NCBI GenBank assembly: GCA_004322205.1
Contig: SCSN01000008.1
Coordinates: forward strand, 18,370 to 82,369
Source: Patescibacteria group bacterium
Lineage (GTDB): Bacteria > Patescibacteriota > Minisyncoccia > Phycocordibacterales > Zambryskibacteraceae
Length of the DNA: 64,000 nucleotides
Direction: 5' to 3'
The translations under genes were made by a program, and so were the position numbers. Position 1 is the first letter of the stretch. Every line of letters begins with the position of its first letter. Positions 2,500-46,718 of the stretch are shown one piece after another. The notes beneath the pieces were generated by a model that was not told the DNA's origin, did not search any database, and saw only the letters and a list, made by a program, of their open reading frames with translations.

Positions 2500-4350
2500 C
2501 TAAACGCCAAGCACTACAGGGATGACGATAGGGCGCTTGGCGGTTTTTTGGAAGAGAAAACGGCTGACCGCGTCGTTGACGTTTGCTTTGACGAAGTCGA
2601 AGTTAATGGGGTTCATGCCGAAGGTAGCTTTCTCGATCGTTCGCTTAATAATGAGCCGGGTTTGCGAAAGCAGTTCCTGTGATTCGCGCAGATAGACAAA
2701 GCCGCGCGAAATTATATCCGGAGATTTCTTGAGCTTGCCGGTTTTGATGTCAATGGTTGCGACAATGACGACAAAGCCGTCCTCGGCAAGCATCTTGCGG
2801 TCTCGCATCACCACTTCTTGGACGTTGCCGATGGAAAAACCGTCAACCAGGACAGGGCTAGAGGGCGCCGATTCTTTGAGTTTGACGAGTCTTTTACCCT
2901 CATCTTGAATCTCGATGACCATGCCGTTGTCGGGGACGATGATATTCTCCGGTGTTATTCCGAGAGAGAGCGCCACTTCTTCGTGAACGCGGAGCATGTA
3001 GTGGGTGCCGTGGATGGGGATAAAGAAACGCGGATGAATTTTTCTGTGAAGCCATTCGAGCTCGCCGCGGTTGCCGTGCCCGGTTGAGTGAATATAGACG
3101 TCGGAGGTGCGGTAGTGGATGATCTTGGCCCCTTGCCGAGCAAGGTTGTCTTTGAGTTTCTGCACCGCCCTTTCATTGCCGGGAATGATGGAGGAAGAAA
3201 GAAGAACCGTATCATTTTTAGTGATCTTGACGTACTTGTGGCTTTTGAGAGACATTCGCATCAGGGCGGCGAATTCGTCGCCTTGGGCGCCGGTGGCGAG
3301 AATAATGATTTTGTCTGGAGGGTATCTCTCCATCACTTCTGGCATAATAATGGTGTCAGGTTTAACTTTGAGTCTGCCGACCTTAGCGGCGATTTCAACG
3401 TTGGTTTTCATGCTGCGCCCTTCAACCACCACCTTTTTGTCGTAGCGCTCGGCGCTCTCGATAATTGCAACGACGCGCTCAATTTGTGAGGCGAAGGTGC
3501 CGATGATAAGGCGGCGCTTGGTGGTGCGAATGATTTCGTCCAAATTTTTGTGGACGAGACTCTCCGGAGTGGACCAGCCGGGATTTTCAACATTAGTTGA
3601 GTCCATCATCAGGAGAAGAACATTTGCATTTTCAAAAATTGAATACTCTTCCTCCTCTGCTTCCGTTGGCACACCATCGACGTGATCAAGCTTGATGTCG
3701 CCGGGATTAACGATCCAGCCTTGGGGAGTCTCAATGATAATGCCCATCGATTCAGGGATGGTATGGGTAACGGCAAAAAAGCGCACCTTGAGATTGCCGA
3801 CGCTGATATGGTCCTCTTTTTCAACCATCCGCAGATCAAGAGCGGGAAGATGAGGAAATTCCTCCTGGCGCTTGCGAATCATGATGGAAGTGAGAAAGCG
3901 GGTGTAGATGGGAGGGTTGCCGATCCGGTTCATTATGTAAGGGATAGCGCCGATATGGTCGAGGTGTCCGTGGGTGATGATGAGGGCGCGCACTTTGTCT
4001 TTGCGCTCTTCGAGGTATTTGGTGTTGGGCAGGATATAGTCAATGCCCGGCGTGTCTTCCTCGCGGAACTGAAAACCGGCATCAAGGACAATAATGTCGT
4101 TGCCGTACTCGACTACCGTCATATTCTTGCCGATTTCCTCAACTCCGCCCAGGGGGATGATGCGGATACTGTCGCCAGCCGGAGGAATCTTTTCTTCTTC
4201 CGGTCGTGTTGCGATCTGCCTCTGCGTCCCACGCATCGGACGGCGCGGACGCCGGAGCATTCCCATGCCGCGCACTCGAAGGTTTGGAGCTTGGCGGGGG
4301 CGCAGCCGGGTGATGTGTTGAGAGAAAGAATCTTGGTGTTGTGGGTTCAT
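2500..4350 (-). CDS. rnj: ribonuclease J
   Basis: Metallo-beta-lactamase HxHxDH motif (ITHGHLDHIG) with beta-CASP and RNase J C-terminal regions. Also carries a basic N-terminal extension of roughly 60 aa. Confidence 0.9.
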   Translation of the reverse strand: MNPQHQDSFSQHITRLRPRQAPNLRVRGMGMLRRPRRPMRGTQRQIATRPEEEKIPPAGDSIRIIPLGGVEEIGKNMTVVEYGNDIIVLDAGFQFREEDTPGIDYILPNTKYLEERKDKVRALIITHGHLDHIGAIPYIMNRIGNPPIYTRFLTSIMIRKRQEEFPHLPALDLRMVEKEDHISVGNLKVRFFAVTHTIPESMGIIIETPQGWIVNPGDIKLDHVDGVPTEAEEEEYSIFENANVLLLMMDSTNVENPGWSTPESLVHKNLDEIIRTTKRRLIIGTFASQIERVVAIIESAERYDKKVVVEGRSMKTNVEIAAKVGRLKVKPDTIIMPEVMERYPPDKIIILATGAQGDEFAALMRMSLKSHKYVKITKNDTVLLSSSIIPGNERAVQKLKDNLARQGAKIIHYRTSDVYIHSTGHGNRGELEWLHRKIHPRFFIPIHGTHYMLRVHEEVALSLGITPENIIVPDNGMVIEIQDEGKRLVKLKESAPSSPVLVDGFSIGNVQEVVMRDRKMLAEDGFVVIVATIDIKTGKLKKSPDIISRGFVYLRESQELLSQTRLIIKRTIEKATFGMNPINFDFVKANVNDAVSRFLFQKTAKRPIVIPVVLGV

Positions 4351-4365
4351 ATGATATGTGGATTG

Positions 4366-6117
4366 TTAAAAGCGAGTGAAAATCTTCCAGACTTTGCTTG
4401 TCTCAATGTACCAGCGGTTGATTGCAGAGAATCGCTCGCTCCCCGTAACTAGGGTGCCGAGGGTAATGCCTTTAATGTTTCGAGGGATGAGGTAGAGGAA
4501 TTGCGGCGAGTAGACAAAGACCACGGGACGATCATTCCCAATTTCTTTCTCGAGCGCAGCGTAGGTTTCGAGGCGCTTTTCTCTGTCGGAGAGCGTTCGG
4601 GCAGTCTCCAGGAGCTTATCAGCCTTGCTGTTGACGTAGAGAGCGATGTTGAGGCCCGGATCGTTGCGCTGGGACGAGTGCCAGAAAGGGTAGAGATCAA
4701 TGTCTCTGCCGACCACTTCACCGAAAAAGAGGGCATCGTAGCGGCGCGGCCGAATGACGTCCTGGTTGAGGTCGCCGGTTTCATAAACCAGAACGGTGAC
4801 GTTGGCTCCGAGGTCATTCCACTGCTCTTGGATGCTTTTGGCGGCCAGTTTAAGTTCCGGTGCGTCCCCGGTGGCGAGCGAGAAAGCCAGAGAGAAATTT
4901 TCCTTCTTGGTTTTTTTCTCGTAAATGCCGTCGACCCCTTTCTTCCAGCCGTTCTTCTCGAGGAGCGCCCGAGCTTCTTCTTTCGAGTGTTCTTTCTCCG
5001 AGAGCTTACCCACACTCCCTCCTGTCAGCGCCGCGGGAATTGGCCCTTCAAGAACGCTGCCGTATCCGGAGAGTACGTCGCGCACGATTTTATCTTTGTC
5101 GAGAGCCAGGTCGAGAGCCAGGCGCACTTCTTTGTTGGTAAAAAGGTGAGCCTGATTTTGGTTGAAGAAGATGCCGAAGATGCGCGGCAGGTCGCCGACT
5201 GCAACCGGAGCGCCGGAGCGGGAAAGCTCGCTAACGAGGCTCGGAGAAACGCCGGCAACACTCTCGACACCGCCGCTCTTGTAGGCTTTCACCGCCTCGC
5301 TCTCATTGGCGAAGAATTTGAAGGTTAGTGTCCTAATGTAGGGCTCGCCTAGAGTGTAGCGGTCCGAGGCGCGCAAGCGGTATTCGTTGGGGATGCCGGC
5401 GGAGTTGCGCCGTGAGCTGGCGACACGGTAAGATCCGGAACCCACCGGCTCGATGTTGTACTGGCTGAAAGGGAATTCGTCAGCCGCCACGTTCTTCCAA
5501 ATATGGCTGGGAAGAATGCCCACGGTCATGTTTTCAAGAAACGGCGCGTAAGGCTGTTTTAAGGTAAAGCGAATCTCTCGCTCGCTCACTTTCTCCACCA
5601 CCACTCCATCCCAATTGCCGCGCTTTGGACTTTTTACTGCCGGGTCCTGAATTTTCTCTATGGTGAATTTGATGTCATCGGCGCTGACAAGTTGCCCGTC
5701 GTGGAAGCGGGCGTTTGGCTTGAGGAAAAAAGTATAGGTCTTCCCGTCCTCAGAGATTTCGTAGCGTTCGGCGAGATCGGGGATGAGTTCGCCATCGGGA
5801 GTCGGGCGCAGCAACCCCGAGTAGACGAGGAAAGAGAGATCACGATCCGCATCGGAGAGCGCCAGGACGGGGTTGACGAAGCGAGGAGAGCCGATGATTC
5901 CTTCGGTTAGGTGCCCGCCGCGCTCAGGGACTTCGACGAGAAAGTTGCCGTTTGTTTTGAGGACAAGTCCTATTCCAGAAAGTACGAAAATTGAAGAGAG
6001 CGTCCAAAAAGCCAGCCGTTCGGCAGGTGAAAACGACTGAACTGCCCGCTCGATGGCGCGTTCTCCCGGCAGACGGAATTTCTTATAGAGCAATTTCTGG
6101 AGAATTTCACTCTTCAC
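4366..6117 (-). CDS. ABC transporter substrate-binding protein, family 5 (peptide/nickel type)
   Basis: 583-aa protein with an N-terminal membrane anchor and overall resemblance to OppA/DppA-like solute-binding proteins. Confidence 0.7.
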   Translation of the reverse strand: MKSEILQKLLYKKFRLPGERAIERAVQSFSPAERLAFWTLSSIFVLSGIGLVLKTNGNFLVEVPERGGHLTEGIIGSPRFVNPVLALSDADRDLSFLVYSGLLRPTPDGELIPDLAERYEISEDGKTYTFFLKPNARFHDGQLVSADDIKFTIEKIQDPAVKSPKRGNWDGVVVEKVSEREIRFTLKQPYAPFLENMTVGILPSHIWKNVAADEFPFSQYNIEPVGSGSYRVASSRRNSAGIPNEYRLRASDRYTLGEPYIRTLTFKFFANESEAVKAYKSGGVESVAGVSPSLVSELSRSGAPVAVGDLPRIFGIFFNQNQAHLFTNKEVRLALDLALDKDKIVRDVLSGYGSVLEGPIPAALTGGSVGKLSEKEHSKEEARALLEKNGWKKGVDGIYEKKTKKENFSLAFSLATGDAPELKLAAKSIQEQWNDLGANVTVLVYETGDLNQDVIRPRRYDALFFGEVVGRDIDLYPFWHSSQRNDPGLNIALYVNSKADKLLETARTLSDREKRLETYAALEKEIGNDRPVVFVYSPQFLYLIPRNIKGITLGTLVTGSERFSAINRWYIETSKVWKIFTRF

Positions 6118-7058: not shown

Positions 7059-7394
7059 ATGAAGAAAAAGAGAGCTAATAAAGACAAGCCGGTAAAATCT
7101 TCCGTGGGTATGATTCCGCTTTGGGATCGGGTGCTCATAAAGGAGGAGGAGACGGCAGCCGAGGGAAAGCGTGAATCCGGAATTTATATCCCTGAAACAG
7201 TGAAGGAAGATCGCGGAACAAAACAAGGCAGAGTTATCGCTGTCGGAGAAGGAAAATATGAGAACGGCAAACTCGTTCCTCTCAAAGTAAAGGTCAGTCA
7301 AACCGTTCTCTTTCAGTGGGGAGATAAAGTTACTTTTCGCGGCGAAGAGTACTACATTGTGCGCGAAAGCGAAATTCTTGCGATTATTAGGTGA
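7059..7394 (+). CDS. groES: co-chaperonin GroES (10 kDa chaperonin)
   Basis: Contains MIPLWDRVLIKEE...GRVIAVGEGK...VLFQWGDKV, the classic Cpn10 pattern. The true start may be the internal ATG at 7110. Confidence 0.9.
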   Translation: MKKKRANKDKPVKSSVGMIPLWDRVLIKEEETAAEGKRESGIYIPETVKEDRGTKQGRVIAVGEGKYENGKLVPLKVKVSQTVLFQWGDKVTFRGEEYYIVRESEILAIIR

Positions 7395-7442
7395 ATCAAA
7401 GAACGGAGCGACTATGATTTTCATACTCACTTAGTTCGTTAA

Positions 7443-9098
<1,656 letters not shown>

Positions 9099-11734: not shown

Positions 11735-12345
11735 GCGATGAACTTAAAAAAGAAAAAGAGACACTCAAAGCGCGAATCACGGAGCTTGAGAGAGAAAATG
11801 AGAGGCTTGAAGCCGATCTTATTCACGACCATCTGACTGGGCTTAAGACACGGAAGTTTTTTGAAGAGGAGCTTGGAATATATCTTGAGACGATTAAGAA
11901 AAGCAGATTGAGCCGCCGGCGCGAATGGTTTGGATTCAGAGTTCTCTCAGTCATCCTTTTTGACGCTGATTATTTCAAGCGTCTCAATGATACCCACGGG
12001 CATCTGGTTGGCGACGAAGCCTTGCAAAAAATTGCCTCTGTCGTTGGAGGAAGTTTGCGGGAAGGTGACACGGCGGCGCGCTGGGGAGGGGAAGAGATTA
12101 TTGCACTTCTGCCGGGAGCAAGTGAGAGAGATGCAGTAAAGAAGGCAGAGGAAATAAGAAGGGAAGTGGAGTTCATTCGTTTGGAAGATGTTTCTGACCT
12201 TAAGCTTTCGGTGAGCGCCGGGGTAGCACAGTCGGAGAGCGGAATTTCAATGGATGAACTTGTCAAACGTACCGATAGAGCTCTATATCATGCCAAGAAA
12301 AGGGGCAGAAACAGAGTCTCCGCGTATTCCGAACTTGGACGTTAA
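11731..12345 (+). CDS. GGDEF-domain diguanylate cyclase with N-terminal coiled coil
   Basis: RWGGEEIIALLPG contains the GG(D/E)EF active site, and the surrounding DGC fold blocks DHLTGL and ISVSAGVA are present. Overlaps the htpX stop by 4 nt. Confidence 0.8.
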   Translation: MSDELKKEKETLKARITELERENERLEADLIHDHLTGLKTRKFFEEELGIYLETIKKSRLSRRREWFGFRVLSVILFDADYFKRLNDTHGHLVGDEALQKIASVVGGSLREGDTAARWGGEEIIALLPGASERDAVKKAEEIRREVEFIRLEDVSDLKLSVSAGVAQSESGISMDELVKRTDRALYHAKKRGRNRVSAYSELGR

Positions 12346-12399
12346 GCTGGGAGTTTTTTTGCTGCTGTTTGATGTAAGTTGTTGGTTGTAGCTGTTACT

Positions 12400-12489
12400 G
12401 GAGGCGTCGCATAGCGGTCTAGTGCGGTTGCTTGGAGAGCAACTATGTCCGAAAGGGCATCGTGAGTTCGAATCTCACCGCCTCCGCCA
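12400..12489 (+). tRNA. tRNA-Ser (anticodon GGA), type II with long variable arm, CCA encoded
   Basis: Hand-folded cloverleaf. Acceptor stem GGAGGCG/CGCCTCC, anticodon stem GTTGC/GCAAC with loop TTGGAGA, a long variable arm, T-loop GTTCGAATC and a 3' CCA. Confidence 0.85.
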
Positions 12490-14363: not shown

Positions 14364-14450
14364 TCAGTCAGTTTACTTTGGGTTGACCCTGTAGTGAATT
14401 TGGCAATAATTGTTTGCGCCTACGGCGCATTGCCGAAATCTACTACGGGG

Positions 14451-16877: not shown

Positions 16878-16937
16878 GGAGCGACAGTGCATAAGTGAAG
16901 TTGTGGGTCGTCGGCTGTTGGTTGTATATTTAATTTC

Positions 16938-18136: not shown

Positions 18137-19035
18137 ATGCTCTTACTGACAAACAGATCAAGGACCTGGAGGTCAAGGCTAATGCCATTCGCCTCTCCAT
18201 TATTGAAATGCTTCTTGAGGCACGCTCCGGTCATAGCGCCGGTCCTCTTGGCATGGCGGATATTTTCACCTATCTCTATTTTGTCGCACTCAAGCACGAT
18301 CCAAAAAATCCTGATTGGCCCGAGCGCGACCGGCTTGTGCTCTCTAACGGTCACATCTGCCCGGTGCTCTACGCCGCAATGGCGCATACCGGCTATTTTC
18401 CGCTGGAAGAATTAAAGACCTTGCGCAAGCTGGGGACTCGGCTACAAGGTCATCCGCACAGAGAGTATTTGCCCATGCTTGAGACAAGTTCTGGCCCTCT
18501 TGGAGCGGGTCTATCGCAGGCAGTGGGAATGGCAATAGCTGACATTATGGATAATGGCATTGATACTAAACGCACTATCTATGCACTTATGAGTGACGCC
18601 GAACAAGCCGCCGGCAACACTTACGAGGCGGCTTTGCTTGCCGGAAAACTCAAACTCCGCAACCTCATCGCTATTATTGACCGCAATAACATTCAGATTG
18701 ATGGCTTTACCGAGGACGTCATACCCTTAGAACCCCTTGCGGACAAATGGAGGGCGCGCAACTGGCATGTCATTGAAATTGACGGGCATAATTTCGCCGA
18801 TATCCACGAGGCAGTCAATCGGGCCAAGGCCGTGTTTGAAAAGCCGTCAGTAATTATTGCCCACACAATTCCGGGCAAGGGAGTGGGTTATATGGAGCGC
18901 GATTTCAAATGGCACGGCGTCCCGCCGGGAATCCAAGATATGCCCGGCGAGCCGCCCAAAGCGGAGCAAGGCAAAATTGCACTAGATGAGCTGCGTTCTC
19001 TCGGCGGTAGGATAAGCGGATACCATAATGATTAA
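18133..19035 (+). CDS. transketolase, N-terminal (TPP-binding) subunit
   Basis: HSAGPLGMADIF, SNGH and GDG-like TPP-binding blocks. Stop and restart with the C-terminal subunit indicate a split transketolase. Confidence 0.9.
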   Translation: MNALTDKQIKDLEVKANAIRLSIIEMLLEARSGHSAGPLGMADIFTYLYFVALKHDPKNPDWPERDRLVLSNGHICPVLYAAMAHTGYFPLEELKTLRKLGTRLQGHPHREYLPMLETSSGPLGAGLSQAVGMAIADIMDNGIDTKRTIYALMSDAEQAAGNTYEAALLAGKLKLRNLIAIIDRNNIQIDGFTEDVIPLEPLADKWRARNWHVIEIDGHNFADIHEAVNRAKAVFEKPSVIIAHTIPGKGVGYMERDFKWHGVPPGIQDMPGEPPKAEQGKIALDELRSLGGRISGYHND

Positions 19036-20068
19036 TGCAAGTGTAAAGCTGAATCCAAAACTGTTTTCTGCCCAAAGCGGACCAGCCTCGGGCTGGGATG
19101 ATGATGTCGAGCAAGTTCCTATTCGCAAGGGATTTGGCGAAGGTTTGGTTATTGCAGGAGAACAAAATGAAAATGTTGTTGGACTTTGCGCGGACCTTAC
19201 TGAGTCTACGCAAATGCATTTATTCAAAAATAAATTTCCAGAGCGGTTTGTTGAAATCGGAGTGGCGGAGCAGAATTTGGCGGGAGTGGCGAGCGGCATG
19301 GCGGCAATGGGTAAAATTCCCTTCATATCTTCCTATGCGATGTTTAGTCCCGGCCGCAACTGGGAGCAGATTAGAACCACTATTTGCTACAACGACCGGC
19401 CGGTAAAAATCGCCGGCTCCCATGCGGGAATTTCTGTCGGTCCGGACGGCGGCACTCATCAGGCAATTGAGGATATTGCTATTACCCGCGTTATGCCGCG
19501 CATGGTGGCGCTTTCTCCCTGCGATGCTATTGAAGCCAAGAAAGCGACAATTGCCGCCGCAAAAACAAATACACCTGTCTATATCCGCCTTGCCCGAGAA
19601 AAAACGCCAGTTATTACAACCGAAGAGACTCCGTTTGAAATAGGCAAAGCTCAAATTTTCTGGGACTCTTCACTTGGCGACCGAACCGCCAAGTGCGAGG
19701 CAGGGGTTATTGCAACCGGCGCACTTTTATACAAAGCGCTTCTGGCGGCGAAGCAACTTGAAAAAGAGGGTATTAGAGTAAAGGTCATGAATCTTTCCAC
19801 CGTTAAACCCCTTGATGAAAAAGCGATTTTGAATTTAGCTAGAGAAACCGGAGCAATTGTTACTGTTGAAGAGCATCAAATTTCCGGCGGGATGGGTTCG
19901 GCAGTGACAGAGTGCTTGGCAGTGAATTACCCCGTGCCGCAGGAATTTGTTGGAGTCAGAGATCAGTTCGGACAATCCGGAACTCAAGAAGAACTCGTTG
20001 AACATTACGGAATGGGAGAAAGTCATATCAAAGAAGCAGTCAAAAAAGTCATAAGTCGAAAGTCTTAA
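19028..20068 (+). CDS. transketolase, C-terminal (pyrimidine-binding plus C-terminal domain) subunit
   Basis: Pyr-binding domain blocks (GVAEQNLAGVASGMA, ICYNDRPVKIAGSHAGISVGPDGGTHQ), overlapping the upstream subunit by 8 nt. Confidence 0.9.
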   Translation: MINASVKLNPKLFSAQSGPASGWDDDVEQVPIRKGFGEGLVIAGEQNENVVGLCADLTESTQMHLFKNKFPERFVEIGVAEQNLAGVASGMAAMGKIPFISSYAMFSPGRNWEQIRTTICYNDRPVKIAGSHAGISVGPDGGTHQAIEDIAITRVMPRMVALSPCDAIEAKKATIAAAKTNTPVYIRLAREKTPVITTEETPFEIGKAQIFWDSSLGDRTAKCEAGVIATGALLYKALLAAKQLEKEGIRVKVMNLSTVKPLDEKAILNLARETGAIVTVEEHQISGGMGSAVTECLAVNYPVPQEFVGVRDQFGQSGTQEELVEHYGMGESHIKEAVKKVISRKS

Positions 20069-21536: not shown

Positions 21537-21610
21537 GCGTAAATTATACCAGTAATGAACAACTGACAACAAACAACATCAATTCTAAATTAAAGAACTC
21601 TGGTTGTTGG

Positions 21611-21640
21611 TTGTAAGTTGTTGGTTGTAAGTTAGAATAT
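21611..21640 (+). repeat. tandem duplication of the GTTGTTGGTTGTAAGT motif upstream of fba
   Basis: ttggttgtaagttgttggttgtaagt contains a -35-like TTGTAA, then 16 nt, then TAGAAT, then 6 nt to the GTG start. Related copies occur at 12371, 16901, 28966 and inverted at 42441. Confidence 0.5.
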
Positions 21641-21644
21641 AGCT

Positions 21645-22514
21645 GTGAAAACTCTGCGCGACCATATTGCCGAAGCTGAAAATAAGCACACTGCGCTCGG
21701 CCACTTCAATATCGGGAACATCGAGGGGCTTTGGGCGATTGCCCGTGCCGCCAAAGCCGTCGGCGTGCCGGTCATTATCGGCGTCTCGGAGGGGGAGAGA
21801 GATTTTCTCGGCGTGCGGCAAGTCAGAGCCCTAGTAACTAGTGTTGCCGAGCAGCTCGGTTATCCCATCTTTCTCAACGCCGACCACACCTATTCGCTCG
21901 AGAAAATCAAAGAAGCGGTCGATGCCGGATTCGACTGCGTCATCATTGACGGCGCTAAACTTTCCTTTGAAGAGAATGTCAAAATTACCAAAGAAGCAGT
22001 CGAGTATGCCCGAGCCAAAAATCCTCATGTGCTTGTCGAAGGAGAGATTGGTTACATTGGCCAATCTTCGCAGCTTTTGGAGACGATTCCTCCGGGCGTC
22101 GCGCTCGATCCGGCCTCCCTTACTTCTCCGGAAGAAGCGAAGAAATTTGTTTCTCTAACCGGCATTGACCTCTTGGCGCCGGCTGTCGGCAATATCCACG
22201 GCATGCTCAAGGGAGGAGATGAGCCGAGCATTGATGTCAAGCGTGTTGCCGCTATCCGGGGAGAAGCAGGTATTCCGCTCGTTCTCCACGGCGGCTCGGG
22301 TAATTCCGACGAAGATTTTCTCAAGGCCATCAAGGCCGGAATCTCAATCATTCACATAAATACCGAGCTGCGGGTGGCTTTTCGCGATGCTGTCAAAAAG
22401 TCGCTCCAAGATGACCCGGACGAAGTGGCACCCTATAAAATCATGAAACCGGCGGTGCAAGCAATGCAGAAACTTGTTGAGCAGAAACTCAAACTATTTT
22501 CCGGACTCTCCTAA
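21645..22514 (+). CDS. fba: class II fructose-bisphosphate (ketose-bisphosphate) aldolase
   Basis: ALGHFNIGNIEGL... and the HG..G and zinc-His blocks of class II aldolases. GTG start, leaderless-like. Confidence 0.9.
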   Translation: MKTLRDHIAEAENKHTALGHFNIGNIEGLWAIARAAKAVGVPVIIGVSEGERDFLGVRQVRALVTSVAEQLGYPIFLNADHTYSLEKIKEAVDAGFDCVIIDGAKLSFEENVKITKEAVEYARAKNPHVLVEGEIGYIGQSSQLLETIPPGVALDPASLTSPEEAKKFVSLTGIDLLAPAVGNIHGMLKGGDEPSIDVKRVAAIRGEAGIPLVLHGGSGNSDEDFLKAIKAGISIIHINTELRVAFRDAVKKSLQDDPDEVAPYKIMKPAVQAMQKLVEQKLKLFSGLS

Positions 22515-28869: not shown

Positions 28870-28994
28870 CTAATAACGAGCGACAAACGACCGACCCCAA
28901 ACGAAATGACGACTGGCAGCGAGCTATTTCGTACGGGGCAGGCGACTGGCGACCTTAAAATCTTGCATTTGTCTTGTTTGTTGTTGGTTGAGAT

Positions 28995-37506: not shown

Positions 37507-38394
37507 ATGAAACCCCTCTCTCGCACAAAAAGACGCATCTACCTGATTTTTTTCGCATTAGTGTTCGTTGTGTCTTTGCCGTTGGTGATTTTGTATGCCA
37601 GAGGTTACCGCCTAACGCTCTCGGAGGCTCTTAAGTTCGGCAGAACGGGCGGCTTTTATATTGCCGCAACGCAATCCGGGGCGGAGATTTACATCGATAG
37701 CAAACTTGTTAAAAAGACGGGCATTTTTCAAAAGAATGTTCTGGTGCAGAACCTAAAACCCGGCTCATATGACATCAAGGTTGTCAAAGACGGCTTCCAC
37801 ACTTGGACAAAGACACTTTCTGTTTTTTCGGAGACAGTAACTGAAGCTCATCCATTTATGCTTCCGGAAAATCCTGAGCTCGTTGAAGTACCGCCGTATT
37901 TGTCTGATTCCGGCATGCCGACATCAACCCCACCCAAAGCTTCGCTGATAAACACTCTGAGAAATCCAGAGTATATTCAAGCAGCAGCTTTGTTTTCCGT
38001 CGCTTCAAGTAAGGAGACTGCCTTAAAGAGCGGAACTTCCACTGAAATTCTTGGGATTCAGAGGAAACTCTCCGTTGAAAATCGAGACGGCAGACTTTAT
38101 ATCGAGTGGTTGGGCAAGTCTGCTGACATTCCAAGCTATTTCTGCCAGTACGAGCAATGCAAGTCGTCAATTACACTTGCCGGTCTTTCGGCGGTAAAAG
38201 TTTTTGATTTCTATCCCGGCCGTGGGGATCTGTTGATTATCGCTGTGTCGGATGGTATTTACGTGGCTGAAATGGACGACCGTTCAGCACAAAACATTCA
38301 ACCTCTGTTTCCGGGCAAGAATCTTGATTTTCGGATCGACGGAGACGTTATTTTCATAAAACAAGCGAAACGAATGTATTTTCTCTCTCTTTAG
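37507..38394 (+). CDS. PEGA-domain protein, membrane-anchored
   Basis: N-terminal TM followed by a KPGSYDIKVVKDGFHTW PEGA-like motif. Confidence 0.55.
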   Translation: MKPLSRTKRRIYLIFFALVFVVSLPLVILYARGYRLTLSEALKFGRTGGFYIAATQSGAEIYIDSKLVKKTGIFQKNVLVQNLKPGSYDIKVVKDGFHTWTKTLSVFSETVTEAHPFMLPENPELVEVPPYLSDSGMPTSTPPKASLINTLRNPEYIQAAALFSVASSKETALKSGTSTEILGIQRKLSVENRDGRLYIEWLGKSADIPSYFCQYEQCKSSITLAGLSAVKVFDFYPGRGDLLIIAVSDGIYVAEMDDRSAQNIQPLFPGKNLDFRIDGDVIFIKQAKRMYFLSL

Positions 38395-38430
38395 GGGTGA
38401 CTGGGGCATAGACGGAGTTTCAGATATAAT

Positions 38431-39297
38431 GTGGTTATGAATAATAAAGAACAGGTGCACCCCCATCCTCTCACTCAGGTTATTCAAGAAACAAGCGATA
38501 TTTTCCGAGAGATGGGGTTTGCCGTTGCCGACGGGCCGGAAATCGAAACGGAGTATTATAACTTTGATGCTCTCAATATTCCTGCCCACCACCCGGCGCG
38601 TGACTTGTGGGATACGTTTTGGTTAAAGACCAACGACCAACAACCCACAACTACCAACAAAGATAAAGATAAATCCGGTTGTCAGTCATCGGTTGTTAGT
38701 GGTGAGTTGCTTAGGACTCACACTTCTCCTGTGCAAGTGAGATATGTTGAAACGCATAAGCCGCCGATTCGGATAATTGTTCCCGGTAAGGTCTATCGCC
38801 ATGAGGCAACTGACGCGGCTCATGAAGCTCAATTTTTCCAGCTCGAGGGTCTTATGATCGAAGAAGAAGTTTCTATTGCTAACCTCAAATACGTTTTAAA
38901 TCAATATTTTGAAAAACTTTTTGAAACAAAAACTGAAGTCAGATTCCGACCAAGCTATTTTCCATTCACCGAACCAAGTGTTGAGGTGGACACGAGCTGT
39001 TTTAATTGTAGCGGCGAGGGATTAATACTAATGGGCACAAAAGGCAAAATTGTAGGTGAAAGAAAAACTCGGACAGACTACAAAGTCTGTTCGGTGTGTA
39101 AGGGTTCTGGCTGGCTTGAAATTATGGGAGCCGGGATGGTTCATCCGAAGGTCCTGCAGGCTATGAAAATTAACCCCCGCAGATACCGCGGTTTTGCCTT
39201 CGGCGGCGGCATAGACCGTCTGGCAATGCTTAAATACGGCATTGACGATATCCGACTGTTTTATACGGCTGACCTTCGGGTTATAAATCAATTCTGA
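38431..39297 (+). CDS. pheS: phenylalanine--tRNA ligase alpha subunit
   Basis: [26 protein letters not shown] and [14 protein letters not shown] class II motifs. Carries an in-frame insertion of about 24 aa at 38630-38705 (see findings). Confidence 0.9.
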
Positions 39298-39298
39298 A

Positions 39299-41671
39299 AT
39301 GCTAGTTTCCTACAAGTGGTTACAGGGATATTTTGATGAGCCGCTTCCTCCTGCAGAAAAGCTGGTAGAGCTTTTAACTAGATACGCCTTTGAAGTTGAG
39401 TCTGTTGAAAAAAGAGGAGAGGATTCTGTTTTGTACGTCAAAGTTCTGCCTGACAGAGCGCATGATTGCCTCTCTCACATTGGGATTGCAAAAGAAATCT
39501 CAACCATCTCTCGCCTGCCGCTCAAAACCGGCTTGGTTTCAGCGCGCCAACTCTCCGCGCCGGAATCAAATTTGCTGAAGGCAGAGTCAGAAGATCCTGC
39601 TTTGTGTCCTCGCTTCAGTGCGCTGGTCATAGAAAATGTTGAGGTCAAAGAAAGCCCGGGCTGGCTCAAGGATTTGCTTGCCGCAATCGGGCAAAAGTCC
39701 GTCAATAATATCGTTGACGTTACAAACTACTGCATGTTTGCCTACAACCAGCCGCTTCATGCCTACGATTTGGGCAAGCTCTCCTCTGGCGAAGAGGGCT
39801 ATAAACTTACTGCCAGAACCGCCGGCAAAAAGATGAAATTTCTCGCGCTGGATGATAAAGAGCACAATCTTGTTGAAACCGATTTGATTATAGCCGACGG
39901 AGTATCTGGTGAGACGCTCGGAATTGCCGGTATAAAAGGCGGCAAGGCGTTTCAAATAGAGGAGAACACGAAACGCATTGCTCTAGAGGCGGCAAATTTT
40001 AACCCTGTTTCAATCAGCAAAACTTCAAGACGCCTTTCTCTTCTGACTGACGCCTCAAGACGCTTTGAAAACGGAATTTCCCCGAGCCTGACGCTCATTG
40101 GGCTTTCCGAAGCTTCGAGACTGATTCTTGAGATTGCCGGGGGGGAGAAGATACGTGTTGAGGGACTTTGCGACTTTTATCCGAGGAGGGCCAATCCTTA
40201 CAAACTGGGAGTATCTCTTTCTGAAGTAAGAAATTGGCTCGGCCTTGATATAACTTCGGCTGAAATTGAGGAAATTCTCAATCGCCGCGGATTTGAGTGG
40301 GGGCTTGTCAGTCCTCGTGAAGAAATTGTTGCGCGCGCCAAAGAGCTCATCGGCGTCCCGTACAAATACGGCTCCAGTGTTCTTTACGACGCGCCGAAAA
40401 CATTTGATTGTTCCTCGTTTACAGCGTACTTGTGCGCGCAGGCGGGTGCCTCCATTCCGAGGATGACGATAGACCAGTATGTTTGGATGGAGTCGGTTGA
40501 AGATGGAGAAGCACAGCCAGGCGATTTTGTTTTTTCAAATACACATGACTTAAAAAGAGTGATACGGACTGAAAGTGTCGAATTTATGGCGGGCACAAAA
40601 GTGCCCGACGGGGTTGATCACGTTGGTGTTCTTCTCGGCGAAGGCAAGGTCGTTCACGCCACTGAAACTGCGGGAAAGGTTATAAAAGAGGAGCTGGCGG
40701 GAGCCCCGCGCTTTCAAGATTTACGCGGCTTCAGGCGAGCTGTGAGCGACGGGAAGAGATACGTTGTAACAGTTCCCGATGAGCGGCTTGATTTGAGAAT
40801 AAAGGAGGATTTGATTGAAGAAATCGGGCGGCTCTACGGTTATGACAGAATCGGCTCGAGGACCATATCTGGTTTTCCACAAGAGCCGGAGATCAACAAG
40901 ACCGCTTATTACTGTGATAGAATCCGCGACTTACTCCGCGCGAAAGGGTGCTCGGAAGTTATCACCTACGCCCTGCGCAGTGATGGGGAAGTTGAACTTG
41001 AGAATCCCACAGCCTCCGACAAGCGTTTCCTGCGCCGCAATCTCTCCGATGCTTTGAGCGAATCGCTTGAAATTAATGTCCGCAATGCCGATTTGCTAGG
41101 TCTCGACGAAATCAAAATTTTCGAAATCGGCAATGTTTTTCCAAAAGAAGGCGAGCGCCTATCCATTGCGCTAGGTGTGAAGAACGGCAGGGGTTCGGCA
41201 AAAAAGGAGACAGAAGAAGTCAAAGAAATTGTCAGCATGCTCTCTGCCGAGTTGGGGGTCGAATTTCCTCCACCAAACGGAGCAGTATATGAGGTGAATT
41301 TAGGGAAAATCTTGGACGGATTGCCCGCGCCGGAGAAACCGCTCTCTTACGAGAAGCCGCTCTCTTTTAGTTACAAGAAGTTCTCGCCTTATCCTTTCGT
41401 CGTTCGTGACATTGCTGTTTTGAGTAGCGAAGAACCAAAGAAGGTGGAAGAATTTGTTGTAAATGGTGCTAGAGAAGCCATCAAGGGCTCAAAGATTGAT
41501 TTGGTGAACAGTCGGATATTCGACGTCTTCGAGCCTAAGGAGGGAGGTAAGTCAACGGCCGTCCGCCTGGTGTTTCAATCGTCGGAGCGAACGCTTACAG
41601 ACAGTGAAGTGAACGAGATTATGAAGAAAGTGACAGAAGATGTTTCAGAAAAAGGTTGGCAGGTAAGATAA
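39299..41671 (+). CDS. pheT: phenylalanine--tRNA ligase beta subunit with an inserted NlpC/P60-like domain
   Basis: N-terminal MLVSYKWLQ, B3/4, B5 and C-terminal anticodon-binding regions. An NlpC/P60 signature (GVPYKYG, FDCSSF, QPGDFVF, HVGVLLGEGKVVHA) lies in-frame inside the B5 region. Confidence 0.9.
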   Translation: MLVSYKWLQGYFDEPLPPAEKLVELLTRYAFEVESVEKRGEDSVLYVKVLPDRAHDCLSHIGIAKEISTISRLPLKTGLVSARQLSAPESNLLKAESEDPALCPRFSALVIENVEVKESPGWLKDLLAAIGQKSVNNIVDVTNYCMFAYNQPLHAYDLGKLSSGEEGYKLTARTAGKKMKFLALDDKEHNLVETDLIIADGVSGETLGIAGIKGGKAFQIEENTKRIALEAANFNPVSISKTSRRLSLLTDASRRFENGISPSLTLIGLSEASRLILEIAGGEKIRVEGLCDFYPRRANPYKLGVSLSEVRNWLGLDITSAEIEEILNRRGFEWGLVSPREEIVARAKELIGVPYKYGSSVLYDAPKTFDCSSFTAYLCAQAGASIPRMTIDQYVWMESVEDGEAQPGDFVFSNTHDLKRVIRTESVEFMAGTKVPDGVDHVGVLLGEGKVVHATETAGKVIKEELAGAPRFQDLRGFRRAVSDGKRYVVTVPDERLDLRIKEDLIEEIGRLYGYDRIGSRTISGFPQEPEINKTAYYCDRIRDLLRAKGCSEVITYALRSDGEVELENPTASDKRFLRRNLSDALSESLEINVRNADLLGLDEIKIFEIGNVFPKEGERLSIALGVKNGRGSAKKETEEVKEIVSMLSAELGVEFPPPNGAVYEVNLGKILDGLPAPEKPLSYEKPLSFSYKKFSPYPFVVRDIAVLSSEEPKKVEEFVVNGAREAIKGSKIDLVNSRIFDVFEPKEGGKSTAVRLVFQSSERTLTDSEVNEIMKKVTEDVSEKGWQVR

Positions 41672-44621: not shown

Positions 44622-46718
44622 ATGGCTGTCCAAAAATCAAAGATCAAAAAGAGTAAAGGTCAGGAGAAAGCCCCCGCAACTAAACGGGGACGTTATAGCG
44701 CTGAAGATATCACTGTTTTGGAGGGTCTTGAGCCGGTGCGCCGCCGTCCCGGAATGTACATTGGCACCACCGGCCCCGACGGTCTTCATCATTTGGTCTG
44801 GGAAATTTTTGATAATGCCCGCGATGAGGCGATGGCCGGTTTTGCCAATCGCGTCGAAGTCGCTCTGCTCCCGGGTAATCGGGTGCGGGTGACTGACAAC
44901 GGGCGGGGAGTGCCCGTTGACATTCACAAGCAGACCAAAGTCTCCGCTCTGGAGACGATTATGACTACTCTTCATGCCGGAGCAAAGTTCGGCGGCGGCG
45001 GATACAAGGTGGCCGGCGGTCTCCACGGCGTCGGCGCCTCGGTGGTTAATGCGCTTTCGGTCTGGATGAGAGCGGTGGTGCACCGCGACGGCGGGGAGTA
45101 TGTTCAGGAATACTCCCGCGGCAAGCGGAAGGGGGCGGTAAAGAAAGTTGGCCCTTCCAAGTTTGTCGGCACCGTTGTGATCTTCGAGCCGGATCCGGAG
45201 ATTTTTCCCGAAATTAGTTTTGATTACAACCGAATCGTCAATCACTTGCGCCAACAGGCGTATCTGGTCAAGGGTCTTCGCATTGTTATGATTGATGCTC
45301 GCGAGTATAAGGAAAAAATTGATGAGGATATTTTCTATCTTGCTGACCTTGGAGCGGAGATGCCTTCAACCACTTTTTATTTCGAGGGAGGTCTTCTTTC
45401 TCTGGTAAAGTTTTACAACCAGACGGAGAAACCGGTCAATAAAAACATCTTCTACGTTGAGAAAAAGCTCAATGAGTATGAATCTGTTGAGGTGGCGCTT
45501 CAGTACGTCGATGACATCTCTTCGCGCCTTATCCCTTTTGCCAATAACGTCTACAACTCTGAAGGTGGAACGCACGTCACCGGTTTCAAAACTGCTCTGA
45601 CGCGGACGCTCAACAACTATGCTCGCAAAAGCGGTTTGGCAAAAGACAATGGCGACAGCTTTACGGGAGACGATGTCTTGGAGGGGTTGACGGCGGTGAT
45701 TTCGGTCAAACTCCGCGAAGTGCAATTCGAAGGCCAAACCAAAGCAAAACTGGGCACGGTGGAGGCGCGGGGGATGGTGGAGAGCATCTTTGGCGACGCC
45801 TTTGAAGCGTTTCTTGAAGAAAATCCTGATGAGGCGAGAGCAATTTTGAATAAGGTTGTTTTGGCGCTTAAAGCCCGTAAAGCAGCCAAAGCGGCAAAAG
45901 ATTCTGTTCTGCGCAAGGGCGCGCTTGAAGGCATGACCCTTCCCGGCAAGCTGGCCGACTGCCAGTCACGCTCGGCAGAAGAGTCAGAGCTTTTCATTGT
46001 TGAGGGCGACTCTGCCGGCGGCACCGCCAAAATGGGACGTGACCGCCGTATCCAGGCGGTGCTGCCCTTGCGCGGAAAAATCTTAAACATTGAACGGGCG
46101 CGGCTCGATAAAATTCTCACCTCCGAGCAGATAAAAAATTTGGTGGTGGCGCTCGGCACAGCCATCGGCGACACTTTTGACATTGGCAAACTCCGTTATC
46201 ACAAAGTTATTATCGCCACCGATGCTGATGTTGATGGGGCGCATATCCGCACGCTTCTCTTGACTCTACTCTACCGTTTCTTCCGGCCGCTGATTGAAGT
46301 TGGTCATGTCTATATTGCCCAGCCTCCGCTCTATAAAATAAAAAAGGGCAAGGATGTTTTTTACGCTTTTTCTGATGAAGAGAAAATGAAAATTGTAGGC
46401 AAAGACGCTACTGCAGAAGAACAAAGAGAGACAGAAACCGAAGAAAGTGAAGAAGAACCTATTGAAGACGAAGCTAAACAAGCTGACAGACCGAAAGGCT
46501 CTAAAGTTTCCATTCAGCGCTATAAGGGTTTGGGCGAGATGAATGCCGAAGAACTCTGGGAGACAACAATGGATCCCGAGCGGAGAACCTTAAAACAAGT
46601 CACGATTGAAGACGCACAAGAAGCGGATAGGGTCTTTGACGTTCTTATGGGTACTGATGTACCTGCAAGGAAGAGCTTTATTCAGACAAACGCCAAACTG
46701 GCAAATCTGGACATTTAA
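44622..46718 (+). CDS. gyrB: DNA gyrase subunit B
   Basis: GHKL ATPase blocks (GLHHLVWEIFDNARDE, GGLHGVGASVVNALS), the TOPRIM EGDSAGG and a C-terminal tail. Start trimmed to MAVQKSK. Confidence 0.95.
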   Translation: MAVQKSKIKKSKGQEKAPATKRGRYSAEDITVLEGLEPVRRRPGMYIGTTGPDGLHHLVWEIFDNARDEAMAGFANRVEVALLPGNRVRVTDNGRGVPVDIHKQTKVSALETIMTTLHAGAKFGGGGYKVAGGLHGVGASVVNALSVWMRAVVHRDGGEYVQEYSRGKRKGAVKKVGPSKFVGTVVIFEPDPEIFPEISFDYNRIVNHLRQQAYLVKGLRIVMIDAREYKEKIDEDIFYLADLGAEMPSTTFYFEGGLLSLVKFYNQTEKPVNKNIFYVEKKLNEYESVEVALQYVDDISSRLIPFANNVYNSEGGTHVTGFKTALTRTLNNYARKSGLAKDNGDSFTGDDVLEGLTAVISVKLREVQFEGQTKAKLGTVEARGMVESIFGDAFEAFLEENPDEARAILNKVVLALKARKAAKAAKDSVLRKGALEGMTLPGKLADCQSRSAEESELFIVEGDSAGGTAKMGRDRRIQAVLPLRGKILNIERARLDKILTSEQIKNLVVALGTAIGDTFDIGKLRYHKVIIATDADVDGAHIRTLLLTLLYRFFRPLIEVGHVYIAQPPLYKIKKGKDVFYAFSDEEKMKIVGKDATAEEQRETETEESEEEPIEDEAKQADRPKGSKVSIQRYKGLGEMNAEELWETTMDPERRTLKQVTIEDAQEADRVFDVLMGTDVPARKSFIQTNAKLANLDI

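Follow-up and report, generated by a model that had tools for sequence, protein, structure and literature searches.

A heptanucleotide-repeat insert in the pheS gene of a Patescibacteria group bacterium

Introduction

Neither heptamer arrays nor palindromic elements lying in frame are new as kinds of repeat. The palindromic elements of Rickettsia (RPE), which Ogata and colleagues are said to have described in 2000 and to which PMC1779305 and PMC10969869 also refer by that term, reportedly insert in frame into protein-coding genes, and REP/REPIN sequences are near-identical, extragenic inverted doublets that are mobilised by, and linked to, a single-copy RAYT (Y1) transposase. Here we analyse an in-frame insert of repeated DNA in pheS, the gene for the alpha subunit of phenylalanine--tRNA ligase, in a 64,000-nucleotide (nt) stretch of contig SCSN01000008.1 from a Patescibacteria group bacterium; this whole stretch is referred to below as the window. 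We favour, with moderate confidence, the reading that the insert belongs to a dispersed family of heptanucleotide-repeat hairpins, arrays resembling a simple-sequence repeat (SSR), and is a copy tolerated in frame; the other family members are intergenic and lie 5' of tRNA and housekeeping genes.

Among the long SSRs of many bacteria, those with heptanucleotide units are the most abundant, for which the length of DNA contacted by the polymerase has been suggested as a cause, and the heptamers favoured by a genome sit 5' of start codons, sometimes as inverted pairs (PMC4692102, PMC4679880). The summary of Mrazek et al. 2007 given in PMC4692102 and PMC4679880 lists as long heptamer SSRs the cyanobacterial STRR of Calothrix, GGGAATC of Xanthomonas, GGGGAYT of Nostoc and TAACTGA of Beggiatoaceae. 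The arrays described here share with the bacterial heptamer SSRs their 7-nt tandem units, the few copies per array and the one favoured unit per genome. They too are mostly intergenic, near start codons and strand-biased, some are inverted pairs able to form hairpins, and they vary between close relatives. The pheS insert itself has at least three tandem 7-nt copies, its unit recurs at several loci, and the unit sequence varies among relatives, as in heptamer SSRs. Unlike the published examples, however, this array pair lies in frame in an essential aminoacyl-tRNA synthetase gene and recurs at one codon in many lineages, its unit is GTTGTNG/CCAACAA, and its hosts belong to the candidate phyla radiation (CPR)/Patescibacteria.

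By analogy, the insert may also be compared with the Rickettsia elements, as palindromic DNA lying in frame in a conserved gene of a reduced genome, encoding a surface peptide without evident function and having intergenic copies too. Those elements, however, are 100-150 nt long and have recognisable consensus copies in many genes, whereas here an array hairpin of ~80 nt has a relative ~64% alike and one coding copy in 64 kb. Short palindromic intergenic repeats, and a Y1 transposase gene in the related locus L163, recall REP/REPIN, but the copies here are not near-identical, and no RAYT was seen in the window, where no search was aimed at one. At the protein level, the PheS loop of Thermus thermophilus (PDB 1PYS, 1B70, 2IY5) occupies the same site between the FW and LLRTHTS motifs with ~20 residues against 28; its sequence is unrelated, and it is not known as repeat-derived. 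Our literature searches on CPR/Patescibacteria found no report of palindromic in-frame insertions, heptamers or SSRs. What appears to be new is the array hairpin in frame in an essential synthetase, its recurrence and turnover at one codon position, and the CPR host group.

Results and discussion

Repeat structure of the pheS insert

The gene product is recognised as PheS by the Pfam domain tRNA-synt_2d (E = 7.6e-96) and matches at 100% the 286-residue P0001, 'phenylalanine--tRNA ligase subunit alpha [Patescibacteria group bacterium]' (P-numbers denote homologous proteins and L-numbers related loci or contigs). Its nearest named relatives come from Zambryskibacteria and Parcubacteria, and pheT lies directly 3' (39299-41671). 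The initial annotation, made from the sequence of the window, had counted about 28 residues between FW and LLRTHTS where canonical enzymes have roughly 4, and this was confirmed. The linker has 28 residues (Table 1), ~20 above the 8-residue basal state of the closest insert-free relatives, as against 3-4 at the same site in solved PheS of P. aeruginosa (4p71) and S. haemolyticus (2rhq) and in E. coli-type enzymes.

The insert DNA reads ccaacgaccaacaacccacaactaccaacaa and then ggttgtcagtcatcggttgttagtgg, as had been claimed, and it is a repeat. Its building block, which went unrecognised in the initial annotation, is a heptanucleotide tandem array, that is, a long SSR. Tandem Repeats Finder (TRF) reports an array of period 7 at 38629-38651 in the left arm (3.3 copies, 87% match), and this arm also matches the intergenic motif at 38634(-) and 38641(-) together with the heptad pattern. 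The right arm aligns with GTYGTNR arrays of relatives. At a lag of 7 nt the insert scores 17/21, against 0 in shuffles; when all 64 kb were scanned in this way, just two loci reached 16/21 or more (21600-21629 and 38623-38658), and none did in shuffles. The imperfect inverted repeat described earlier is borne out as well, with 26-nt arms at 38633-38658 and 38678-38703 that are 73% complementary.

Translation of a 7-nt repeat runs through all three frames and yields a peptide of 7 residues (CCA ACA ACC AAC AAC CAA CAA = PTTNNQQ). The NNQQPTT motif of the window PheS and its relatives, NDQQPTT in the window peptide, is the expected product. Since selection on amino acids cannot produce a 7-nt period, the DNA repeat came first. 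On the pattern of their nucleotides, the ~20 extra residues of PheS are a translated DNA repeat and not a protein-level invention. Of the earlier proposal that a small repeat element had inserted in frame, this in-frame addition at the DNA level stands, with a periodicity of 7 nt and not 3 nt, as do the unit shared with intergenic arrays and the site in a loop predicted to be disordered; the insertion is not a recent one in this genome, and hallmarks of a discrete mobile element were not found (see below).

Chance low complexity as the source of the insert was ruled out by the motif excess, the heptad pattern, the lag-7 scan and alignment shuffles. An assembly artefact was rejected because homologous inserts recur in 8 independent assemblies (JGI, ENA, Logan, NCBI). 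A seed-8 inverted-repeat scan of the whole window found no further coding hairpin of this type, although the interrupted pheS arms themselves escape such a scan.

Table 1. Coordinates of the pheS insert and related arrays in the window, and repeat units of linker inserts in related loci
Feature	Coordinates	Strand	Details
pheS (phenylalanine--tRNA ligase alpha subunit)	38437..39297 (open reading frame, ORF, 38431/38437-39297)	+	286 aa, short form without N-terminal coiled coil
Expanded linker L63-E90	38623..38706	+	Between motif-1 F61-W62 and the L91-L92-R-T-H-T-S strand; from alignments
Left arm	38629..38661	+	~4 CCAACAA-type units: CCAACGA CCAACAA CCCACAA cta CCAACAA; minus strand is a GTTGTNG array
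A-rich spacer (loop)	38662..38676	+	Translated DKDKS; unpaired in predicted folds; varies among family-A relatives
Right arm, inverted GTTGTNR-type array	38677..38709	+	GGTTGTC AGTCATC GGTTGTT AGTGGTG AGTTG; direct repeat D2 (14-nt spacing), inverted repeats I1/I2
Full-length intergenic relative of the insert	21555..21633	+	CAAC-type array 21558-21578, AT-rich spacer, perfect (GTTGTTGGTTGTAA)x2.2 array 21601-21633
GTTGTTGGTTGTAGC half-array	12378..12392	+	8 nt 5' of tRNA-Ser (12400-12489)
AGTTGTGGGTCGTCGGCTGTTGGTTG array	16899..16924	+	5' of ORF starting 16938 (rpiB per initial annotation)
TTGTTTGTTGTTGGTTG array	28974..28990	+	Ends 4 nt 5' of prfA ATG (28995)
L172 and L147 linker insert			(AAATYCG)n
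L118 linker insert			(AAATCTC)n
L120 linker insert			(AAAATCA)n
L083 linker insert			(CAATTTC)n
L117 linker insert			(GGCAAAT)n
L081 and L082 linker inserts			Strong family-B hairpins, z -8.5 and -6.0

Related arrays in the window

The sharing of a motif between the insert and intergenic sites, which had been noticed by eye, is supported by counts in the window. GTTGTTGGTTG with at most one mismatch occurs 8 times at 5 loci against 0.98 expected (0/100 shuffles reach 8), and exact GTTGTGGGT occurs 3 times against 0.13 expected, 16900 and 38643(-) being among its sites. The insert shares its unit with the shorter arrays 5' of tRNA-Ser, rpiB and prfA, and it shares unit, arm-spacer-arm layout and ~80-nt length with the element upstream of fba. 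The latter lies between divergent genes, a minus-strand gene starting at ~21546 and fba starting at 21645; it contains an array detected by TRF and has a DNA fold z of -3.3. Insert and element are colinear over 78 nt at ~64% identity, with the canonical unit AACAACC common to 21601 and 38629. This element (aligned within 21541-21650) is also the best non-self local alignment of the insert in the window. Its score of 23 stands against 7.45 +/- 1.53 for the remaining 120-nt windows of either strand and is reached by 0/2000 arm-wise shuffles; the next-best matches are the remaining GTTG arrays.

All 5 intergenic arrays of the window are oriented so that GTTG reads in the sense direction of the gene that follows, and the array upstream of prfA is found at the equivalent place in L165 and L168. 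Across ~175 kb, comprising the window and 8 relatives, the pattern GTYGTnnGTYGTnnGTYG (0 expected) is confined to promoter-proximal intergenic arrays and both arms of the pheS inserts. Because the arrays stand before genes, one overlaps a predicted promoter (TTGTAA-16-TAGAAT, 21611-21638, under the fba-upstream array) and TATAAT boxes occur in this clade, we call them 5'-proximal or promoter-proximal. The term describes their position, and any function would be putative. 'Promoter-associated', as the motif had first been described, holds for position and strand only, and nothing promoter-like is predicted inside pheS.

These observations raise the question of whether the insert could be a functional cis-element in coding sequence, such as an internal (bidirectional) promoter, a protein-binding site on the GTTG heptads, or an mRNA hairpin modulating pheS translation or pheT coupling. 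The shared sense-strand orientation would fit such a role, as would the pheS arms, which point outward like the divergent layout at 21555-21633, the recurrence of prfA-upstream arrays in three genomes, the strong hairpin potential of the inserts in L161 (z -4.3), L171 (z -4.7), L082 (z -6.0) and L081 (z -8.5), and a common length of ~29 residues across insert families. However, a search of 38300-39400 for sigma-70-type promoters (-35/-10, 16-18 nt spacing) found 0 against 1.5 expected, and no Rfam family matched the insert, the single chance snoRNA match scoring 18.5 bits against a cut-off of 95. The fold check proposed with the original observation showed that a hairpin can form in the window insert but is marginal when judged alone (RNA z -1.4 over 106 nt, RNA -2.0 to -2.2, DNA -1.7). 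In addition, half of the close relatives have no insert at all, pairing is lost in L167 (-0.3) and L168 (+0.8), the inserts of family C form no hairpin (L172, +0.8), and pheS promoters lack an array except in L172. We consider a cis-regulatory role of the insert quite improbable.

A TATAAT box lies 7 nt 5' of the window pheS ATG (38420-38440) and 6-9 nt 5' of the pheS start in every relative examined (L161-L172). So near the start codon, it leaves no room for a Shine-Dalgarno sequence, which suggests leaderless or near-leaderless mRNAs in this clade.

Inserts in related genomes

An alignment of 119 homologues, the check originally proposed, revealed a basal linker of 8 residues on which inserts are patchily distributed. 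The linker is exactly 8 residues long and LKPENSKK-like in 57 of the 119 close CPR homologues and has 10-43 residues in ~59, the full range being 5-43; the length distribution is bimodal, with one mode at 8 and the other at 27-31 residues. Growth of the linker by 7-residue steps (3 x 7 nt) was not significant (Rayleigh p ~0.27), and this claim was dropped.

At least 8 related Parcubacteria PheS (L161-L167 plus the degenerate L168) carry homologous inserts at the same codon phase, which we term family A. It follows that the insert did not enter this genome recently. The left part of family A reads x ACC AAC RAC CAA SAA CYN ACA ACY RAC AAR, the spacer is variable, and the right arm reads TCR TCR GTT GTN RGT NGT MAG. 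Units vary among CCAACAA, CCCACAA and CCTACAA, with up to 4.4 perfect copies in relatives. The array of L162 is a perfect (CCAACAA)x4.3. That of L167 is a perfect (CCTACAA)x4.3; here all four left-arm units changed from A to T in concert while the right arm remained unchanged. This one-arm change without compensation argues against selection for pairing, and compensatory pairing changes were not seen among the inserts, as judged without a formal covariation count. Fold z in family A spans -4.3 (L161) to +0.8 (L168).

In a neighbour-joining tree of the 119 proteins, members of family A and insert-free sequences are interspersed, and in two robust pairs close sisters differ at the orthologous site, by presence or absence in one and by replacement in the other. 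L164 (family A) and L169 (no insert) are 82% identical in nucleotides outside variable regions and are separated by a clean 66-nt indel, and L162 (family A) is 81% identical to L171, which carries at this site a hairpin of similar length built of ACGCRGA / TCYGCG units (family B). Other relatives have arrays of further units (Table 1), and the best local period is 7 nt (0.67-1.0) in 19 of the 23 PheS linker inserts for which DNA was available. In L081, the conserved LK codons form one hairpin arm, with an inverted copy inserted beside them, which is a signature of strand switching.

In the window and in L161, L162 and L165, the pheS insert is mirrored by intergenic arrays of the same contig (8-mer clusters, local-alignment scan), and the L161 insert aligns with a hairpin directly 5' of tRNA-Thr (z 5.9). 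The arrays upstream of tRNA-Thr and prfA are variably present or absent among syntenic loci. In L162, the region 5' of tRNA-Thr (7270-7480) holds two degenerate copies of a GTTG array, a TTAAAT-like box and the first ~20 nt of the tRNA (GCCGCCTYAGCTGTTTTGG), preceding the real tRNA at 7533; the promoter and the 5' end of the tRNA appear to have been partially duplicated in tandem.

Such patterns could also be produced by a discrete, non-autonomous mobile element (a MITE/REP/RPE-like palindrome) that reaches intergenic sites and this exact site of pheS by transposition or homing, its in-frame copy being tolerated. Since distant lineages share homologous cassettes and close sisters differ by gain, loss or replacement, a mobile or homing-like element stays the main rival of the repeat-array reading. 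It would account for the patchy distribution, the clean indel between close sisters, the same codon phase in distant lineages, the different cassette families of L162 and L171 at one site, and the ~80-nt colinear relatives 5' of fba in the window and 5' of tRNA-Thr in L161. Two further observations fit it: the left flank of L164 is locally nearer to L162 (0.92, 0.88) than to its sister L169 (0.78, 0.72), and L163 has, ~6 kb 5' of its family-A pheS, a gene for a Y1_Tnp (IS200/IS605 or RAYT-type) transposase at 3313-3888 (-). On the other hand, the 64 kb contain no near-identical second copy of the insert, the longest exact blastn match being 12 nt, and the one colinear relative there, that upstream of fba, is ~64% identical. 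Neither terminal inverted repeats distinct from the arrays nor target duplications were found in the sister alignments L164/L169 and L161/L170, which show clean indels without flanking direct repeats. Moreover, many inserts consist of tandem arrays only and lack an inverted arm (L172, L118, L120, L083), units drift and homogenise in place, as in L167, and the colinearity with the fba element may follow from equal units and equal architecture. We consider the discrete element of the earlier proposal unlikely: the insert shows no terminal repeats or target duplication, no near-identical copy in 64 kb and no transposase link, although no search of the window was aimed at a transposase.

The encoded loop

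Insertion into pheS has left the reading frame intact, at a site whose length varies across solved PheRS structures. In an AlphaFold2 model (42-sequence alignment), built as had been advised, the predicted local distance difference test score (pLDDT) is below 50 and secondary structure is absent at residues ~54-92, whereas the catalytic core is confident. The insert is predicted to be disordered, and nothing found suggests a structured or conserved role in the protein; the PheS enzyme most likely works in spite of it. One search for the insert peptide in other proteins found no shared words, and a representative search gave spurious matches in repetitive proteins only.

We also weighed the possibility that the insert is an adaptive protein insertion, an idiosyncratic expansion of an aminoacyl-tRNA synthetase that contacts, e.g., tRNA-Phe or a partner, the DNA repeats being incidental. 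The T. thermophilus insertion at the same site, the last residues before LLRTHTS, which stay S/G-R/K-K/Q-like with or without an insert, and the clustering of lengths at 27-31 residues are in keeping with this idea. Yet the insert is predicted to be disordered, families unrelated in sequence occupy one site, close relatives do without it, and a 7-nt periodicity is not producible by amino-acid selection. We regard an adaptive origin as very improbable.

A second lineage-specific insert of pheS (39013-39087, residues ~193-217) lies between the two CxxC pairs of the zinc knuckle. AlphaFold2 predicts a beta-hairpin there, and P0059 has a similar insert. Its DNA CGGACAGACT-acaa-AGTCTGTTCG (~39066-39090) forms a hairpin with the conserved KVCSVC codons as 3' arm, and this suggests an inverted copy of neighbouring sequence.

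Origin of the insert

The repeat nature of the insert, the unit and layout that it has in common with intergenic arrays, its homology and patchy occurrence among relatives and the predicted disorder are direct observations; the mutational mechanism and the neutrality of the insert are what we infer. Polymerase slippage, known to favour 7-nt units, would build the arrays, intramolecular strand switching would create the inverted arm, and copying or gene conversion between arrays, possibly with short-patch recombination between related lineages, would spread them. The pheS copy would survive because it keeps the reading frame, its units contain no stop codon in any of the three frames and the surface loop accepts 3 to 43 residues; the peptide NDQQPTT...SVVSG would be a disordered passenger. 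The array may have reached pheS by slippage and strand switching in situ, as a copy of another array, or through short-patch recombination from one lineage to another.

It should be noted that several observations weigh against this reading. Family-A members whose pheS DNA is only 62-74% identical (computed without the linker and the zinc-knuckle region) still share codon phase, unit number and right arm, while close sisters have no insert (L169) or one of another family (L171). Simple slippage in situ does not predict such distant sharing together with turnover between sisters; precise losses would have to have recurred, or the inserts would have to have spread laterally or been targeted to the site. 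The 27-31-residue mode spans unrelated sequence families, and selection on length or structure is possible. Finally, the copy number is known for 64 kb of this genome only, and for the other repeat families a matching intergenic array on the same contig was not shown within the 2-20 kb available per contig.

We speculate that, for some arrays, heptads present in the ancestral linker (AACCAGA / AAATTCA) were the only local seeds of growth, an idea that is attractive for AAATYCN-type arrays but fails to explain the shared right arm of family A. A broader proposal, which we put forward as doubtful, is that CPR/Patescibacteria carry an undescribed class of tiny repeat cassettes (heptamer- or 11-nt-array hairpins of several families) that are copied between loci and lineages and land repeatedly in permissive loops of essential genes (PheS linker, PheS zinc knuckle, PheT, ThrRS, GatA, GyrB), the same units forming the 5'-proximal arrays of tRNA and housekeeping genes. 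If this were true, repeats would be the source of much lineage-specific extra sequence in CPR housekeeping proteins, and the PheS linker would act as a homing-like hot spot at which cassettes replace one another, as families A and B do in the sister pair of 81% identity.

For lineage-specific insertions in essential CPR proteins, the pheS insert offers a concrete and testable origin: on this evidence, such insertions can be the translation of repeated DNA and not adaptations. It ties the expansion of coding sequence to the heptanucleotide arrays that decorate the 5' regions of genes and are overrepresented in many bacteria. The PheS linker, with gain, loss and replacement at species-level divergence, is a convenient natural marker for the origin and movement of repeats. 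For annotation and phylogenomics, these segments are non-homologous low-complexity inserts that should be masked in alignments.

Heptamer arrays in other genes

Strong tandem arrays were counted in a background of 2.31 Mb of related loci, obtained from PheS-relative scans of genome and metagenome contigs (listed relatives at <=56% identity). Period 7 dominates with 68 arrays, as compared with 16 of period 5, 28 of period 6, 2 of period 8 and 4 of period 9. Array units recur within one genome, and the intergenic arrays are often inverted pairs (L018, L149, L055). In-frame arrays lie inside pheT in L023, L103, L089, L096, L100 and L083, and also in the PheS zinc-knuckle region (L141, L154) and in ThrRS-like (thrS-like), GatA-like and GyrB genes. 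In L117, family-B arrays in pheT form a hairpin of -32 kcal/mol. L128 carries an identical 34-nt array, CGCAGACCACGCAGACTGGTGCAGACCTCGCAGA, in frame at 11762-11795 and 14413-14446 (the pheT N-terminus and a 190-residue ORF), encoding QTTQTGADLA in both, which is direct evidence that copying of an array between coding loci can occur. This pair also fits a mobile element, as do the inverted ACGCGGA-type arrays of L117 at 3616-3642 (+) and 4044-4069 (-), which flank ~400 nt inside a 777-residue ORF (3342-5672). The enclosed segment, which begins ...ENITYEIRGAAFE, may have been inserted in frame, with the inverted arrays as its bounds.

Two short coding arrays with other units occur in the window. 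One, CAAAAAT CAAAGAT CAAAAA at 44631-44650, encodes QKSKIKKSK close to the GyrB N-terminus, and the other, AAAAGTC ATAAGTC GAAAGTC at 20044-20064, lies at the C-terminus of the ORF at 19028-20068. The window pheT contains at residues 352-469 an NlpC/P60 domain (a cell-wall peptidase family; Pfam E = 3.8e-14) inside its B5 domain, an arrangement also recorded in L161, L162, L164-L166, L168 and L170 and not in L163 or L172.

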